7,011 nucleotides of DNA from a virus (lineage: Duplodnaviria; Heunggongvirae; Uroviricota; Caudoviricetes). The notes below the pieces were generated by a model. That model ran no database searches, was not told the origin of the DNA, and was given only the letters and a program-made list of their open reading frames with translations. The stretch is from positions 1 to 7,011 of the IMG/VR virus record IMGVR_UViG_2648501165_000013, one strand, 5' to 3'. Position numbers and translations under genes: made by a program. Positions 1-7,011 of the stretch are shown piece by piece. Within the stretch, counting starts at the first letter, position 1, and each line of letters opens with the position of its first letter.

Positions 1-1236
1 CTACGATAGCCGCGCATTCAACATGGCTACCTGTTCGTCGTTCATATCATCAATCCACATACCGTAAATTTCATACACCATCTGCGCAGTTTCATGCCCC
101 ATCTGGCTGGCTATAAATGCCGGGTTCGCTCCTGCCGTCAACAGCCAGCAGGCAAAAGTATGCCGCGTATGGTACGGATTACGGCGGCGAATACCAGCAC
201 GTTTTACTGCTGCATTCCACCTTGCCCCCAAACTGCTTACCGAGTAATAAGGTTTCTGTTTTCCGTTACACACCCTGGGCATGAAAACAAAATGCAGTTT
301 TTGCTTTTCGGTTCTGCCGTACTCCCGATGATAAAAGGTGATTTCGCTTTTGCGATGATGCCCGGTCAGTTTGTATTGCTCCTTCAGTGCTTCAAGAGCA
401 GGATGCAGTAATGTTACTGTCCGGATCCCGGCATTTGTTTTTGGGGGACCGAACATATCCAGTATCGTCAGGTTTCTTCTGACATTCACAGTTCCCTTCT
501 CGAAATCCACATCCTCCCACGCCAGAGCTGCCAGTTCCCCGTGACGAAGCCCGGAGTAAACGGCAAATTTCCACAAGTTTTGGCTCTGTCCTTTTTCACT
601 TTCCATTAATGCATTGAATTCTGTTTTAGATAACGGGTCAGGCTTTATTCTGTTTCGCTGTAATTTTTTTACTCCTTCAAATGGTTTGGTTGATATAAAT
701 CCCGACTGATACGCAAAACGTAACAGCGAACAGAGCAGGGCGATATAGTTATCAACTGTGCGCACGGTTCTTCCTTTTTTGTTGGATCTTGGATTATCCA
801 GGTAAAGCGTTTCTCCATGCAGCAGTTCATTCCGGTAGTTTAAGATATCGCTATAACGAATATATGATATCGGGGTACTTTCACAAATTATTATTCTGAG
901 TGTTTTTAATTGTGATTTCGTTTTCTTCATTGTGTTTGTTGTTAACTCTGTCTCTTTAATTTTTGTCCAGATATCACAAAGCTCCCCGAACGTTTTTATG
1001 ACTCTCGTTGTCACCATTTTTGCCCCAGTGCTGGACTGGGGAAAACGTCTTAAATACTCAAATTCACCGGAGTTTATTTCATGAACTATCAGCGCTCTTA
1101 AATTTCCGGCCTTTTTAATATTACTGTTTGTAATCTCCCAGCCTTTTAATGTTTCCCGACATCGTTTTCCTCGAAACATGAACCAGATGCGAATGTTTCT
1201 ACCTCTAATCTCGACACCTGTTGGTAATTTAGACAT
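1..1236 (-). CDS. intR: Tyrosine-type site-specific integrase, Rac prophage IntR-like (411 aa)
   Basis: Complete minus-strand ORF (ATG at 1236-1234, TAG at 3-1). Translation starts MSKLPTGVEIRGRNIRIWF and has C-terminal tyrosine-recombinase signatures (GLRHGEL, HTRHTFA, GHETAQMVYEIY with a candidate catalytic Tyr). Matches my recollection of E. coli K-12 Rac IntR. Its start lies 1 nt past the xisR stop, suggesting translational coupling. Confidence 0.92.
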   Translation of the reverse strand: MSKLPTGVEIRGRNIRIWFMFRGKRCRETLKGWEITNSNIKKAGNLRALIVHEINSGEFEYLRRFPQSSTGAKMVTTRVIKTFGELCDIWTKIKETELTTNTMKKTKSQLKTLRIIICESTPISYIRYSDILNYRNELLHGETLYLDNPRSNKKGRTVRTVDNYIALLCSLLRFAYQSGFISTKPFEGVKKLQRNRIKPDPLSKTEFNALMESEKGQSQNLWKFAVYSGLRHGELAALAWEDVDFEKGTVNVRRNLTILDMFGPPKTNAGIRTVTLLHPALEALKEQYKLTGHHRKSEITFYHREYGRTEKQKLHFVFMPRVCNGKQKPYYSVSSLGARWNAAVKRAGIRRRNPYHTRHTFACWLLTAGANPAFIASQMGHETAQMVYEIYGMWIDDMNDEQVAMLNARLS

Positions 1237-1237
1237 A

Positions 1238-1453
1238 TCATGAGTCTTTGATAAACTGATTTATCTTTGGATAGTTGTACCAGATAATCCCTCGTTTGCT
1301 GTCTGGCTTACCTAAAGGAGATACTCGTTTGAAGTGGAAGCCCTCCACCCAACAGTTCTGGCGGTATGCTTCAATTTGTCTGGCCCCCAGACCAGTGCGA
1401 AGCATCAGGCCGTATTCAACCATCCACTCTTCATTAAAGATTACTTGTGCCAT
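1238..1453 (-). CDS. xisR: Excisionase-like protein, XisR/YdaQ (71 aa)
   Basis: Minus-strand ORF translating [71 protein letters not shown], ending TGA at 1240-1238. ATG at 1453-1451 is preceded by GAGGTGA about 5 nt upstream. The ORF-track version (to 1477) starts at a TTG with no better ribosome-binding site, so the ATG is preferred. Position directly upstream of intR fits an excisionase. Confidence 0.8.
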
Positions 1454-1467
1454 CGCATCACCTCTGG

Positions 1468-1500
1468 CAGGCGCCAATGTTAGACTGAAATTGACGCCTG
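1468..1500. promoter_or_regulatory. Imperfect inverted repeat (11-bp arms, 11-bp spacer) in the xisR-intR upstream region
   Basis: caggcgccaat (1468-1478) and attgacgcctg (1490-1500) are reverse complements with one mismatch. The repeat sits 15-47 nt upstream of the xisR start, in the only sizeable intergenic gap (1454-1552). No T-run follows on either strand, so an operator is more likely than a terminator. Confidence 0.25.
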
Positions 1501-1552
1501 ATGTTGATTATTAATAATCAGCTATGAAGTTTTAATTTGAATACAATGCAAT

Positions 1553-1712
1553 TCACGAGGACTGAAGTTTCTCGCAATTAAAATTTATCAGTTTTACTTT
1601 CTGCTCTCTGGAAACGCCTGCTTCTTTTTTACCTGAGAGCATTTTTTCGCATTCTGATTTCGTTAGTTTAGATTTTGAATATCTTGTCCAGTTAGTAGGA
1701 GTGCCACCTTCC
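1553..1712 (-). CDS. Small hypothetical protein at the position of Rac ydaC; 5' end lost in the N run
   Basis: Minus-strand frame open from the N run down to TGA at 1555-1553, translating ...EGGTPTNWTRYSKSKLTKSECEKMLSGKKEAGVSREQKVKLINFNCEKLQSS. It lies between ralR and xisR as ydaC does in K-12 Rac. The start codon cannot be located because 1713-1722 is N. I do not recognise the protein sequence itself. Confidence 0.5.
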
Positions 1713-1722
1713 NNNNNNNNNN
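1713..1722. other. Run of 10 N (gap or masked bases)
   Basis: Ten consecutive n characters; separates the ydaC-position ORF from the ralR stop. Confidence 1.
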
Positions 1723-1735
1723 TGTAGCGGTAATT

Positions 1736-1942
1736 TTATACATGAACGCCTCCATTAATATTTTCAGTGGTTCGTTTATCCCATCTTTCGAGCGCTTCTT
1801 TTTCACTTCCACCATAGCCAGTTCGGGATTCGCATCCGTTGCATTTTGCCCGGTAATATCATGAAATGTCTTTCACCGTTACTGATGGACAACCACAAAA
1901 CGGACATGGTTTAACATCGTCATATCTCAAAGTTTTTGTCAT
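1736..1942 (-). pseudogene. ralR: ralR (Lar-family restriction-alleviation protein / RalR DNase toxin) interrupted by an in-frame TGA at codon 28
   Basis: Minus-strand frame from ATG 1942-1940 reads MTKTLRYDDVKPCPFCGCPSVTVKDIS, then TGA (1861-1859), then continues in the same frame as YYRAKCNGCESRTGYGGSEKEALERWDKRTTENINGGVHV to TAA at 1738-1736. Cys pairs on both sides of the stop (CPFCGC and CNGC) indicate one ancestral 68-codon gene. An alternative in-frame ATG at 1969-1967 has a better ribosome-binding site. Confidence 0.7.
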
Positions 1943-1986
1943 AAAAACTATCTCACGTTGGCGGTGCATTACACCGCCTGGCTGAA

Positions 1987-2796
1987 TTATTCTTCTGAAT
2001 TATCGATTACACTGTATTCCCCGGTTAATACAGAGGAGTCTGCCGGATCGATTGTCAGTGGTTCCTTTTCATCCATTGATACTGCACGCTGGATTTCAAT
2101 TGAGACAGGCAGGTATTTAAACAGGCGACGAATAGCCGTTTTTTTTGCCATTTCTTCCCAGTGAGTTACCCACGGCCCGTTATTACCTGCCTTACTCTGG
2201 CTGCGCACCAGTTCAATCTGTTTGCGCGTCATAACTTCAAACTGAGTCCCTCCGTCTTTCAGTCTTGCGACAGCATAGACGTGGGTCACTGGTGCATCTT
2301 CGTTTTCTCCCGGGCGGTGTATTAACTTTTCATCAAGGCCAAATTCGAAGCTAAACTCGTCACCTTCACGGACAACACGGGCTGACAGGCTGGCGATTTG
2401 ACCAGAACGGCGAGCCAGATCAATCATGCCGCGATAGCCAATGATTAGCTGAACGTTCTTTTTACCGCTCTTTTCGTTTTTATTACCAAAAGGCAGTAAA
2501 TATGCGTGGCCAAGGGCGCTACCTGGCTCAAGGCCGAGCTGTGAACACTGTACGATTGCACTGACAAAACTCATAGTGTCACAGTTTCCTAACGCTGGAA
2601 CGTTACGAATTTCTGTGGTGGCGATACGGATCATACGTTCAGCCGTCATATGGCGTGGAAGAGCTGCTGCCAGTTGCTCTTTCATTGATGGCTGGTTAAT
2701 AAAACTAATCACGTCGTTATTTTTAACTGCTGCTGGTGCACGGTTTCCCTGAGTTTTTTGCAGATCGGCTTTTGCGATTGGTGGTTGCTTAGTCAT
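1987..2796 (-). CDS. recT: RecT single-strand annealing protein (269 aa)
   Basis: Minus-strand ORF translating [50 protein letters not shown]...VIDNSEE, matching my recollection of K-12 RecT. ATG at 2796-2794 is preceded by AGGA. The start overlaps the recE stop (ATGACTAA); the ORF-track N-terminal extension to 2853 is recE 3' sequence in another frame. Confidence 0.95.
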
Positions 2797-3798
2797 TTGC
2801 ATATTCCTTAGCCCAGCGGGGCAGTGATAACGTCTTAATAGCTGGCCATTCATCGGTATTGAGGCAGTCAGCCAGGGTCCTCAGATTGCGGTGATATTCC
2901 TGCTGGCCTGCCAGTTTTGCTTCTTCGCCCATCATGAAAATCTCAATCGGGTAACGTCCGCATTCAACAGTTGTGCTGGCAACCAGAAAAACGAAAGTTG
3001 GCAGCACACCAAACTGTGCTTCATAACCGTCACTGTAGAATGCATCCTGAACGTGATAGCGGTAGTCGTAATAAGCCGTTTTGAATCGTTGAATATCCGC
3101 TGTGGTTTTCACGTCCATGATCCAGTGAAATTCAGGAATAATTTTGTCCGGACGGCACCGACACAAAATTCCTGTTTCCGGATCTTCCCAGTAAATTGAT
3201 GATTCAGCGTGTCCGGCGCTTTCCACAAGCCATTGACCCAGCGGCAAAGCCATAACGCTCTGATACATGAGTTCAATTTTCCGGCCTTCTTCGGCAGTGA
3301 TAACCGTTTTTCCTGTGCTTGCGCATTCCATCAGAAACGCTTTCTCTTCTTCTTTTCCGGCGTTTGTACGGCGGTTAAATTCAGGTGCTACGATAAAGCG
3401 GTTACTGAATTCTTCCGGTTCAAGTACACGGCAGTGGAAAGCGGTTCCTAAATCGAGCGTTTTTGTCTTTGTGGTGTCCACAGGGGCATTTTTACGCCAC
3501 AAATACAGCGCCGGAGTATCAGCAATGTCGTCGAGCTGAGACTTACTGACACCGGGACCCGCGTGGTAATTCTCATTCGAAATTCCGTAATAAATACCAG
3601 GCTCTATGTCTCCTGCGATTACGGGATCTGCGACTTCGCCAGTTTCATCACTGCAATCGCGATGCAGATCGCTGCCAGCATTCTCATTGTGCGGATGTTC
3701 AGGGCCTTCCATTTCCTCCGGCTCTTTTTCCTGAGATTCATCCAGATTTTCTTCATTAAAGGTTTCCTGATACGTTGCGTCGCCCATCACCGCACCAC
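2789..3798 (-). CDS. recE: recE 3' portion: exonuclease VIII C-terminal nuclease domain (about 336 codons); 5' side ends at an N run
   Basis: Minus-strand frame reads [60 protein letters not shown]...[24 protein letters not shown]...[11 protein letters not shown], ending TAA at 2791-2789. The PDK...IMDVK pattern fits a PD-(D/E)XK nuclease and the C-terminal sequence matches my recollection of K-12 RecE. Upstream of 3799 the ORF-track frame is not RecE. Confidence 0.9.
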
Positions 3799-3808
3799 NN
3801 NNNNNNNN
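3799..3808. other. Run of 10 N (gap or masked bases)
   Basis: Ten n characters exactly at the switch from recE sequence to bet sequence. Confidence 1.
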
Positions 3809-3950
3809 GCAGTGCGATAAACTGCGCATCGCTGGCATTGCCTTTAAATGCCGTCTGGCGAAGAGTGGCGATCAGTTCCTGCGGGTCGACAGTATCCATG
3901 CCGACACGTTCAGCCAGCTTCCCGGCCAGTGTTGCAAGTGCTGTACTCAT
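3809..3950 (-). pseudogene. bet: 5' fragment of bet (lambda Red-beta family annealing protein), first 47 codons only
   Basis: ATG at 3950-3948 with GAGGT about 9 nt upstream. Translation MSTALATLAGKLAERVGMDTVDPQELIATLRQTAFKGNASDAQFIAL matches the lambda Bet N-terminus as I recall it. The frame runs into the N run and then continues out of frame over recE sequence ([13 protein letters not shown], stop at 3758-3756). Confidence 0.8.
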
Positions 3951-3955
3951 TTGTT

Positions 3956-4255
3956 TTATACCTCTGAATCAATATCAACCTGGTGGTGAGCAATGGTTTC
4001 AACCATGTACCGGATGTGTTCTGCCATGCGTTCCTGAAATTCAACATCGTCATCAAATGCGCGACTGATTGCCTGTTTGCTGGCACCGTGGCGTTGCAAA
4101 TGGTCGATGCAGAGCGATTCAAACAGGTGCTGAGGCAGACCTTTTTCCAGGTCGTCCGCCAGTTCCGTTTCTTTTTCTTCGCGAACGATCTTCTGGTAGT
4201 GGCGTGACCATGCCAGCTCTTCAATGCGATCAAAAATCGGGCATGTGCTCATCAT
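3956..4255 (-). CDS. gam: Gam-like RecBCD inhibitor, short GamS-type form (99 aa)
   Basis: Minus-strand ORF translating [99 protein letters not shown]. The C-terminal 75 residues are near-identical to lambda Gam as I recall it; the N-terminus is divergent. A stop lies two codons upstream in frame, and the gene ends 5 nt before the bet ATG, the same gam-then-bet order as lambda. Confidence 0.85.
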
Positions 4256-4373
4256 CTGTTACCCCAAAATTTTCAAGTTTGTTTGCGATCATCATTGCAA
4301 TACCCGGAATTAATGGCGCTGAGGCTATACCTGCAGGATTCGCACATAAACCGTAAACCGCCGCAATCACCAC
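4230..4373 (-). CDS. Hypothetical small hydrophobic protein (47 aa if GTG start) overlapping the gam start; may instead be the C-terminal tail of a longer recE-like ORF
   Basis: Frame reads [47 protein letters not shown] to TGA at 4232-4230. It has a transmembrane-like hydrophobic core and overlaps gam by 26 nt, the position kil occupies in lambda. There is no in-frame ATG with a ribosome-binding site; the frame is continuous upstream with the recE-like RDCSDETGE codons. Confidence 0.3.
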
Positions 4374-4444
4374 TTGTCTTTTCCAGTCGAGTTTTTCTAA
4401 TGATGAAGCTGTTGCTTCGCCAGTTTCATCACTGCAATCGCGAT

Positions 4445-4454
4445 NNNNNNNNNN
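4445..4454. other. Run of 10 N (gap or masked bases)
   Basis: Ten n characters inside the recE-like acidic linker, between VRENE and RDCSDETGE. Confidence 1.
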
Positions 4455-4556
4455 CTCATTTTCCCGAACTTCAACCTGATTCTCGTCATCGAATGTTTCC
4501 TGATATGTTGCGTCGCCCATCACCGCACCACAGTCAGGGCAGTTATCCCCGCCAGA

Positions 4557-4719
4557 CTGACCGCAGGCGGTGCAAACTTTCTCCGTTTCCTGTTGTTGCA
4601 CTACTGGCTCAGGCTGTTTCGTTTCTGGCTCGTTTTGTTGCGTATTTTGGTCGTTCTGTTCCGTTTCTGGCTGATTCTGGTATATAGAGTCGCGGGTCTG
4701 GATCCCCTTAACCCATTTC
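4557..4719. repeat. Diverged direct repeat, copy 2 of a ~160-bp recE module ([10 protein letters not shown]...CTACGQ)
   Basis: Aligns to 4731-4890 with a 3-bp length difference and roughly 75% amino-acid identity ([54 protein letters not shown] versus [53 protein letters not shown]). Confidence 0.8.
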
Positions 4720-4729
4720 NNNNNNNNNN
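4720..4729. other. Run of 10 N (gap or masked bases)
   Basis: Ten n characters exactly between the two copies of the ~160-bp module. Confidence 1.
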
Positions 4730-4730
4730 T

Positions 4731-4890
4731 CTGACCGCAGGCATTGCAGACTATTTCCGGTTTCTGTTGCACTACTGGTTCAGGTTGTTTCACATCCGGG
4801 CTGGTTTTTACAGTTTCTGGCGTGTTTTGTTCCGTTTCTGGCTGGTTCTGGTACACAGAGTCGCGAGTCTGGATCCCCTTTACCCATTTC
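4731..4890. repeat. Diverged direct repeat, copy 1 of the ~160-bp recE module ([10 protein letters not shown]...CNACGQ)
   Basis: See its partner at 4557-4719. Confidence 0.8.
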
Positions 4891-4914
4891 GGATCGTTCG
4901 GGTCGCTAATCCCT

Positions 4915-5706
4915 TCAACGAACTCACCACGCGAAGCAGCCAGTAATTTGTCTGCATCGACAGGATTTTTGGGCGGAATGTTTTTCCGGGCTTCATGGAG
5001 TTCTGCCCGCAGTTTCTGATATTTTTCATCAACAGAATTTACCTGTGACTGAGCATCCAGCGGCTGCGTGTCCTGATGATGTTCAGTTGCATCCGGTTCC
5101 ACTGTTTCAGCCGTTGCCTGTTCATCTGCCATTGCGCAAGATGGTTGCAGTTTTTCTTCATCATCCTGTTTTTCTTCTTCTGTTACACGCTGCGGCATCG
5201 GGGCAGAGGAACGACCGCAGGCAATATCCACGATTTCTGGATCAGGGTTGGCATGATCAGTTTCAGTCAGTACTTTGTTCAGATATTCAGTGACGTGCGC
5301 GGGGATGACCTCGATCCCAATTGGTGCTTCTTTCACGGACGCAACCACGATGGCGCGGGAATAATCCAGCCCGCCAGGCATGGTGATGAATTTGTCGCGG
5401 AAAACAGAAAAGGGTGGTTTATTTTCAGCGATAATTTCCTCGACACGTTTAGCGTGTGCCGGATGAAGGTTATAAATGTCCACGTCCATTGAACGAGCCA
5501 GTACGCCAGTGGCTACGTCGCGCGCCAGTGACGTCAGATCGTGAACGAAACCTTCGCCGCGATCGGTGAGGTTCCCGCCGCCAGCATTAGCGCCGGAAGC
5601 CGTGCGCGTGATGCGTGAAACACGATTTCCTTTTCGCCATTCTTTTGTCAGAAGACCGCGATCAATGTGTTCGGTATCCAGCCAGGCTGAAATGAAATTC
5701 TTAAAT
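4915..5706. repeat. Direct repeat copy A (~792 bp) of recE coding sequence
   Basis: Aligns base for base at an offset of 802 with 5717-6508. About 475 bp (4936-5410) is essentially identical (one difference seen), the next ~300 bp is about 93% identical, and 4915-4935 differs at every third position (wobble sites). The plus-strand ORF-track entries 5045..5293 and 5847..6095 have identical translations. Confidence 0.95.
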
Positions 5707-7011
5707 NNNNNNNNNNTCAACAAATTCTCCGCGAGAGGCAGCCAGTAATTTGTCTGTATCGACAGGATTTTTGGGCGGAATGTTTTTCCGGGCTTCATGG
5801 AGTTCTGCCCGCAGTTTCTGATATTTTTCATCAACAGAATTTACCTGTGACTGAGCATCCAGCGGCTGCGTGTCCTGATGATGTTCAGTTGCATCCGGTT
5901 CCACTGTTTCAGCCGTTGCCTGTTCATCTGCCATTGCGCAAGATGGTTGCAGTTTTTCTTCATCATCCTGTTTTTCTTCTTCTGTTACACGCTGCGGCAT
6001 CGGGGCAGAGGAACGACCGCAGGCAATATCCACGATTTCTGGATCAGGGTTGGCATGATCAGTTTCAGTCAGTACTTTGTTCAGATATTCAGTGACGTGC
6101 GCGGGGATGACCTCGATCCCAATTGGTGCTTCTTTCACGGACGCAACCACGATGGCGCGGGAATAATCCAGCCCGCCAGGCATGGTGATGAATTTGTCGC
6201 GGAAAACAGAAAAGGGCGGTTTATTTTCAGCGATAATTTCCTCAATGCGTTTAGCGTGTGCCGGATGAAGGTTATAGATGTCCACGTCCATTGAACGGGC
6301 CAGAATGCCAGTGGCTACGTCGCGGGCCAGCGACGCCTGATCATGAACGAAACCTTCGCCGCGATCGGTAAGGTTCCCGCCGCCTGCATTAGCACCGGAA
6401 TCTGTGCGAGTGATGCGTGAAACACGATTCCCTTTTCGCCATTCTTTTGTTAGAAGACCGCGATCAATGTGTTCGGTGTCCAGCCAGGCTGAAATGAAAT
6501 TCTTAAATTCATAGGGCTGATGTTTTTTCGTGATAGAGAAAACTGCCTTAATTGCATCAGTCAGGCGGAGCAGGGCGGCATTATCCAGAGTTGTCGGTTC
6601 TGCCATGCCGCGTATGGCCAACAGCAGATTCTGGACATAGCTGTTTTCCTGATCCATCTCAAGAGCAGTAATGTGTTTGCGTTGTTCACGGGTGGCATGA
6701 TGCAGGTATTTCCGATCCCCGGCCGCATACGTAAAAATGTGCAGAAGACGCTGTGTGAACCGCAAAGTGGCTACAGAGACTTCGCAATCCTGGCAATCCC
6801 CGTGGGCGTCTGCCTGCGCGTTTTCTTCCAGGCCTCCCGCCAGTTCTTTGGTTTCCTGAGCATTATCCTGGTGGTGAACGTCGTCTGGCGCTGCTCCCGG
6901 TTTTAGTTCCCAGGTCATGGAGTCTTTGCTGAGTTGATAGCGGTCACTCCAGGTAAAATCGATCTCACCTTCAGGGGGCAGGTCATTAACGACAGGAAAA
7001 TTCGTGGCAAC
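5701..7011 (-). CDS. recE: recE 5' portion (RecE N-terminal, non-nuclease region); start lies beyond the window end; frame stops at 5703-5701 just past the N run
   Basis: Minus-strand frame open from the window edge reads [43 protein letters not shown]...[42 protein letters not shown]...[11 protein letters not shown]. The conserved blocks match my recollection of K-12 RecE residues from about 60 onward; the stretch between them is a divergent allele. The frame is +1 relative to copy A, so it terminates right after the junction. Confidence 0.8.
5707..5716. other. Run of 10 N (gap or masked bases)
   Basis: Ten n characters exactly at the junction of the two ~792-bp copies. Confidence 1.
5717..6508. 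repeat. Direct repeat copy B (~792 bp) of recE coding sequence
   Basis: See copy A at 4915-5706. Confidence 0.95.

Follow-up and report, generated by a model that had tools for sequence, protein, structure and literature searches.

The direct repeat of recE coding sequence in the 7,011-nt window (the whole stretch of DNA analysed here) is very probably an artefact of scaffolding in a short-read draft assembly, created from two paralogous prophage recE regions. The repeat boundary falls at a gap placeholder of the wrong length, the joined segments stem from two distinct loci, and collapse of the overlap restores an intact recE. An exact protein match to Gam led to the source: the window is the reverse complement of positions 3-7013 of L004, which is contig LARS01000203.1 (48,118 bp) of assembly GCA_000969495.1; this contig ends 2 nt past window position 7011, within recE. 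Five runs of exactly 10 N, all already in the deposited NCBI record, cut the window into six contigs (S1 to S6, Table 1), and ttcA and dbpA come after S1 in the source contig. Each of the five is located where the two prophages are paralogous to each other, and the 4-kb flank with ttcA and dbpA has none.

The most probable course of events starts from a strain that would carry two prophages. The first would be of the Rac type, located at ttcA with an intact intR-xisR-ralR-recT-recE region, and the second would be lambdoid, of the kind seen at yebY in complete genomes, with int-xis-ralR-exo-bet-gam and a recE without its nuclease end. The assembler, unable to separate the paralogues, would have produced six small contigs, S1-S2-S5 from the first locus and S3-S4-S6 from the second, and these would have been strung in order of their recE position with a fixed 10-N spacer at each join. 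As S5 would end, and S6 begin, with the same 792 nt of recE, a direct repeat at an offset of 792 + 10 would follow, and the ten N would produce the frame shift and the stop codon. Near-identical parts of the paralogues may have been collapsed to one consensus that took the state of either allele at each cluster of variants, with only the densely variant stretches kept as separate contigs. Finally, a 2 × 2 repeat across a 459-nt core may have been resolved wrongly, such that S5 and S6 each switch paralogue.

The initial annotation described a repeat of ~792 bp with a constant offset of 802, mosaic identity and six wobble differences that leave the peptide ASRGEFV intact, and all of these values were recomputed as stated. 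Copies A and B form a gap-free alignment (offset 802) that contains 29 mismatches (96.3% identity), a similarity far above chance, and ...ASRGEFV is encoded at the low end of both. The last base of copy A stands directly before the fifth N run and the first base of copy B directly after it, a run that was absent from the earlier description. The "repeat" is a suffix-to-prefix overlap of S5 and S6 across a gap placeholder. That two diverged alleles are present, instead of a recent tandem duplication, was borne out by genome comparison; their placement in tandem was not, as the junction is a 10-N spacer and the alleles come from two prophage loci.

Table 1 Segments, N runs and repeat parts in the 7,011-nt window. 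L001 is the Rac-type reference locus, L002 and L003 are reference loci of the exo-bet-gam prophage (locus 2), and L005 is a contig of a sister assembly.
Feature	Position	Strand	Reference match or identity	Content or placement
S1	1-1712	-	L001 1501-3212, 100%	intR 1-1236, xisR 1238-1453, start of the DUF1187 gene
N run 1	1713-1722		8 nt (TTTTCAAT) in L001, flanks 100% identical	S1-S2
S2	1723-3798	-	L001 3221-5296, 100%	ralR 1736-1930, recT 1987-2796, 3' part of recE 2789-3798
N run 2	3799-3808			S2-S3; joins different loci (S2 Rac, S3 lambdoid prophage)
S3	3809-4444	-	L002/L003, 99.7%	5' end of bet 3810-3950, gam 3956-4252, tail of truncated recE
N run 3	4445-4454		58 nt in L002, L003 and L005	S3-S4
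S4	4455-4719	-	L002/L003, 100%; L001 5220-5481, 82%	locus-2 allele of the recE linker region
N run 4	4720-4729			S4-S5; S4 from locus 2, low end of S5 from locus 1
S5	4730-5706	-	L001 5321-6297, 97.2%	24 nt after S2 in Rac-type coordinates
N run 5	5707-5716			S5-S6; arbitrary-length scaffold spacer that forms the supposed repeat junction
S6	5717-7011	-	L001 5506-6800, 98.7%	recE 5' region (Pfam Exonuc_VIII); 24 nt after S4 in locus-2 coordinates
Copy A	4915-5706	-		final 792 nt of S5; middle region of recE
Copy B	5717-6508	-		opening 792 nt of S6
Block 1 of repeat	4915-4935 (21 nt)		71% identity	six differences at 3-nt spacing; peptide ASRGEFV unchanged
Block 2 of repeat	4936-5410 (475 nt)		99.8% identity	one difference
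Block 3 of repeat	5411-5706 (296 nt)		92.6% identity	22 differences
Identical core	4956-5414 and 5758-6216 (459 nt)	-		present in both copies

Judged from the sequence, the N runs are fixed placeholders whose lengths are not true distances, because the Rac-type reference has 8 nt, not 10, between S1 and S2. Where the references permit a measurement, the true gaps are 8, 24, 58 and 24 nt, the value of 24 being found at both S2/S5 and S4/S6. Suffix-to-prefix overlaps occur between S2 and S4 (77 nt, 84%), S4 and S5 (~160 nt, 82%) and S5 and S6 (792 nt), and the segments start in ascending order of their L001 positions. In addition, S3 finishes with 30 nt (4415-4444) that also occur, unchanged, in S2 (3634-3663). 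An end exactly 30 nt past the last locus-specific base is found in S3, in S5 and in the sister contig L005, and these ends fit the expectation for nodes of a k=31 graph; the ends of S2, S4 and S6 and the missing 8, 24, 58 and 24 nt do not fit a k=31 de Bruijn graph model. Velvet writes a minimum gap of 10 N, which is a lead and not evidence. Literature searches for a documented "10 N" scaffolder convention and for a publication on the WGS and assembly accessions returned nothing usable.

In complete Escherichia coli genomes, the counterpart of the entire window is a 5300-bp stretch with one intact recE, and 1538 complete genomes cover at least 80% of it. The best locus, L001 of strain SCPM-O-B-9504, is a Rac-type prophage adjoining ttcA that contains intR, xisR, a DUF1187 gene, ralR, recT and a single intact recE of 2673 bp. 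S1, S2 and the low part of S5 match this locus, and S1-S2-S5 are collinear with it, with true gaps of 8 and 24 nt. Pfam identifies RecT in S2, and the 3' part of recE in the same segment carries the PD-(D/E)XK nuclease domain (Pfam DUF3799). Of S3, no more than the final 30 nt map to L001. As a separate observation, ralR (1736-1930, minus strand) has an in-frame TGA at codon 24 (…VKDIS*YYRAK…); the stop is real and not an assembly error, since it is identical in L001, where the gene is annotated as a pseudogene.

The second locus is represented by L002 (strain 13E0780) and L003 (strain F2_407_2_2), in which a prophage inserted beside yebY encodes int, xis, a DUF1187 gene, ralR, lambda exo, bet, gam and a truncated recE, the latter annotated in RefSeq as "RecE family exodeoxyribonuclease, missing C-terminus". 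Identity to this exo-bet-gam prophage is 99.7-100% for S3, S4 and the low part of S6. Both references have the order S3, 58 nt, S4, 24 nt and then the starting sequence of S6, and S3-S4-S6 are collinear with the locus, with 58 and 24 nt as the true gaps. S3 codes for the first 47 codons of Bet and the complete Gam (Pfam PF06064, 8e-57), and all 49 informative sites in S4 are of the L003 type.

Several further features of the locus-2 recE (3809-4719 plus 5717-7011; L002 5608-7438; L003 4625-6454) were observed. The gene retains the 5' two-thirds up to a break at ...RDCSDETGE, past which follow ~60 unrelated codons and a stop at 4230-4232 that overlaps the start of gam, with gam-bet-exo located downstream. 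The rebuilt frame is open for at least 618 codons, with Exonuc_VIII retained and the nuclease domain absent. RefSeq labels the gene a pseudogene, and it might be expressed as a RecE N-terminal protein alongside the Red system. Near position 6313, L002 has a 1-nt G insertion (between L001 5835 and 5836) relative to L001, L003 and the window, which accounts for the extra "frameshifted" flag on the truncated recE of 13E0780. Upstream of recE, L001 7061-7802 and L002 7540-8281 encode identical proteins in different strains (WP_001358843.1, YdaE WP_000258918.1 and KilR WP_000560228.1), and the recE 5' regions are also identical. Given these identical proteins and recE 5' regions, a whole early-left block is common to the two prophage types (Rac-type at ttcA, exo-bet-gam at yebY), and this would account for the end of the source contig within recE.

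The arrangement as written also affects the reading frame. While 792 is a multiple of three, 802 leaves a remainder of one, and the minus-strand open reading frame from 6918 stops at a TAA (5701-5703) in the deposited layout. The initial annotation had located this stop correctly, but the frame offset that it placed at the junction comes from the ten N only; the +1 frame and the TAA are artefactual because they arise only by reading through the spacer. When the overlap was collapsed (S2, 24 reference nt, S5 and then S6 past the overlap), the result was an open frame of 837 codons that starts at the window edge, reaches the natural stop (...KEYAND*) and is collinear with the 890-aa reference protein over its residues 54-890. 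Pfam searches of the reconstructed locus identified Exonuc_VIII (PF06630, 4e-30), DUF3799 (PF12684, 1e-27) and RecT (PF03837, 1e-56). The restored product has an N-terminal Exonuc_VIII and a C-terminal PD-(D/E)XK domain and is followed by recT, in agreement with the RefSeq annotation. The earlier view that no full-length RecE could be made and that the nuclease domain is uncoupled does not hold, as the collapsed frame contains both Pfam domains.

L001 and L003 constitute two natural haplotypes of the recE region, and every informative site in S5 (77 sites) and S6 (51 sites) has the L001 or the L003 state, with no private bases. S5 begins with 45 L001-type sites (4730-4955), continues with alternating runs of 2, 2, 3 and 3 sites and ends with 22 L003-type sites (5415-5676). 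S6 begins with 9 L003-type sites (5722-5793), followed by alternating runs of 2 and 3, then 27 L001-type sites (6100-6609) and alternating runs of 3, 4, 2 and 1. Copy A is accordingly L001-like (Rac type) at 4915-4955 and L003-like (lambdoid-locus type) at 5415-5676, and the 459-nt core displays the state pattern 33 11 333 111 in copies A and B alike. Comparison with recE alleles of other genomes, as suggested by the initial annotation, placed switches near 5410 and near 6100-6216. As written, S5 and S6 reach 97.2% and 98.7%, respectively, in their best matches among 5,426 complete genomes; S1, S2 and S4 are by contrast 100% identical to complete genomes. Exchanging the parts across the core gives P' (S5 4730-5414 plus S6 6217-7011) and Q' (S6 5717-6216 plus S5 5415-5706). 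P' differs from L001, and Q' from L003, by 5 mismatches each within 792 nt, compared with 12-27 for the sequences as written, and Q' sits exactly 24 nt past S4 in F2_407_2_2. The patchwork is most likely a collapsed or mis-phased consensus, and the strain most likely has, in reality, an intact Rac-type recE (P', L001-like) together with a truncated locus-2 recE (Q', L003-like).

It could be speculated that only the layout is artefactual and that the patchwork is real, the recE paralogues having swapped short tracts by gene conversion or reciprocal recombination. Natural alleles are themselves visibly mosaic, L002 having an S4-type block and then Rac-type sequence and L003 an S4-type block and then diverged blocks, so S5 and S6 could in part be genuine mosaics. 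Moreover, every state in S5 and S6 is found in natural alleles, and recombinases are encoded at both loci (RecET and Red). On the other hand, neither mosaic occurs in any of the 5,426 complete genomes, and an 84-nt N-free stretch spanning one allele switch is absent from the viral, genome and metagenome contig collections, all three of which are large. Real exchange would also need 5 and 7 switches within ~1 kb, and the reciprocity of the two contigs on either side of the core is as a wrongly resolved 2 × 2 repeat would give. The unique contigs of this assembly agree at 100% with complete genomes. A real patchwork is for these reasons an unlikely, though not a negligible, explanation. With the same low likelihood, the window would record a recent exchange of several short tracts, with two alleles built solely from each other's states and a core homogenised to identity, a snapshot of ongoing recombination between prophages.

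Less probable by far is a mixed or contaminated culture in which each allele belongs to a different strain, as opposed to two prophages of a single genome. Co-residence of both loci in one chromosome, which we infer, leaves room for this reading, but the sister assembly GCA_000969545.1 holds an identical locus-2 contig, and complete genomes such as those of 13E0780 and F2_407_2_2 have two places that match the recE region. S3 also carries other genes (bet and gam), which points to a separate locus and not just an allelic variant.

A true tandem duplication of 802 bp or similar within recE, with a junction that failed to assemble, would agree with the adjacent copies and their same orientation as laid out, and it is very improbable. 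At the junction the sequence is interrupted by the 10 N, and the low side of copy A continues from S2. The sister assembly contains a 1084-bp contig without N (L005), whose reverse complement reads 30 nt, S3 (636/636 identical), 58 nt, S4 (265/265), 24 nt and then copy B 5717-5787 (71/71). Because this ungapped contig reads so, the low end of copy B is joined to S4, gam and bet, not to copy A; complete genomes have the same contiguity, with 24 nt between S4 and the low end of copy B. No match in the 5,426 complete genomes spans an 88-nt synthetic junction from A to B. Three further spacers show such an overlap across N, and a piece of the other prophage is inserted as well. With its junction absent from these complete genomes and copy B joined to S4 in L005, the tandem duplication was rejected. 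The initial annotation had named a collapsed two-copy artefact as the alternative refuting its interpretation; this was the right alternative, and the tandem reading that it preferred did not stand. Finally, that the N runs mask real bases one for one in a genuine layout, as the equal length of the five runs might imply, has almost no probability and was rejected since the measured distances differ from 10: the 100%-identical flanks are 8 nt apart in the reference, and the other runs represent 24 or 58 nt or overlaps of 77-792 nt.

The exact N-containing junction pattern had no match in the viral, genome and metagenome contig collections, with N matching N in a control. In the phage collection, all matches were at most 95% identical and none had the layout of the window. 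A side observation concerns PP818812.1, "Actinobacillus phage vB_Apl-pPE4" (host Actinobacillus pleuropneumoniae), which is 94.9% identical over ~2.5 kb of the Rac-type recE region. This is unexpectedly close for a Pasteurellaceae phage, and the host may be wrong or the record contaminated.

The scaffolding artefact resembles the false duplications in eukaryotic drafts reportedly described by Kelley and Salzberg (Genome Biol 2010), in which diverged copies were both kept beside gaps. Here too, copies of 96% identity flank an N gap as a suffix-to-prefix overlap, collapse restores a normal gene, and finished genomes are without the duplication. Unlike those cases, the copies stem from paralogous prophage loci in a haploid bacterium, not from diploid haplotypes, and a contig with different genes (bet, gam) is interleaved. 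The first locus is like the recE-recT region of the E. coli K-12 Rac prophage (exodeoxyribonuclease VIII and RecT), with the order intR-xisR-ralR-recT-recE beside ttcA and the Pfam domains Exonuc_VIII, DUF3799 (PD-(D/E)XK) and RecT, and genomes 100% identical over S1 and S2 are annotated so; compared with K-12 Rac, the real recE gene shows nothing unusual. Lambdoid prophages with a Red module (exo-bet-gam) in place of recT and the nuclease end of recE are the known counterpart of S3, S4 and the low end of S6, and it is from this lambdoid Red locus, with which the finding itself is not concerned, that the second allele derives. That Rac and lambda exchange recombination modules has long been known, as in the lambda "reverse" phages.

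The genes in the window are ordinary and already annotated in complete genomes, and the duplication is not a real feature of the genome. Annotators of the record would call recE disrupted and would place gam and bet fragments inside a Rac prophage, neither of which is supported, and a duplication or a "recombining allele" structure might likewise be reported from it without support. As a rule, where a repeat boundary meets a fixed-length N run, a contig overlap should be assumed until reads show otherwise. The biology behind the window is that known from complete genomes: two prophages with exchangeable recombination modules and a common recE 5' region.
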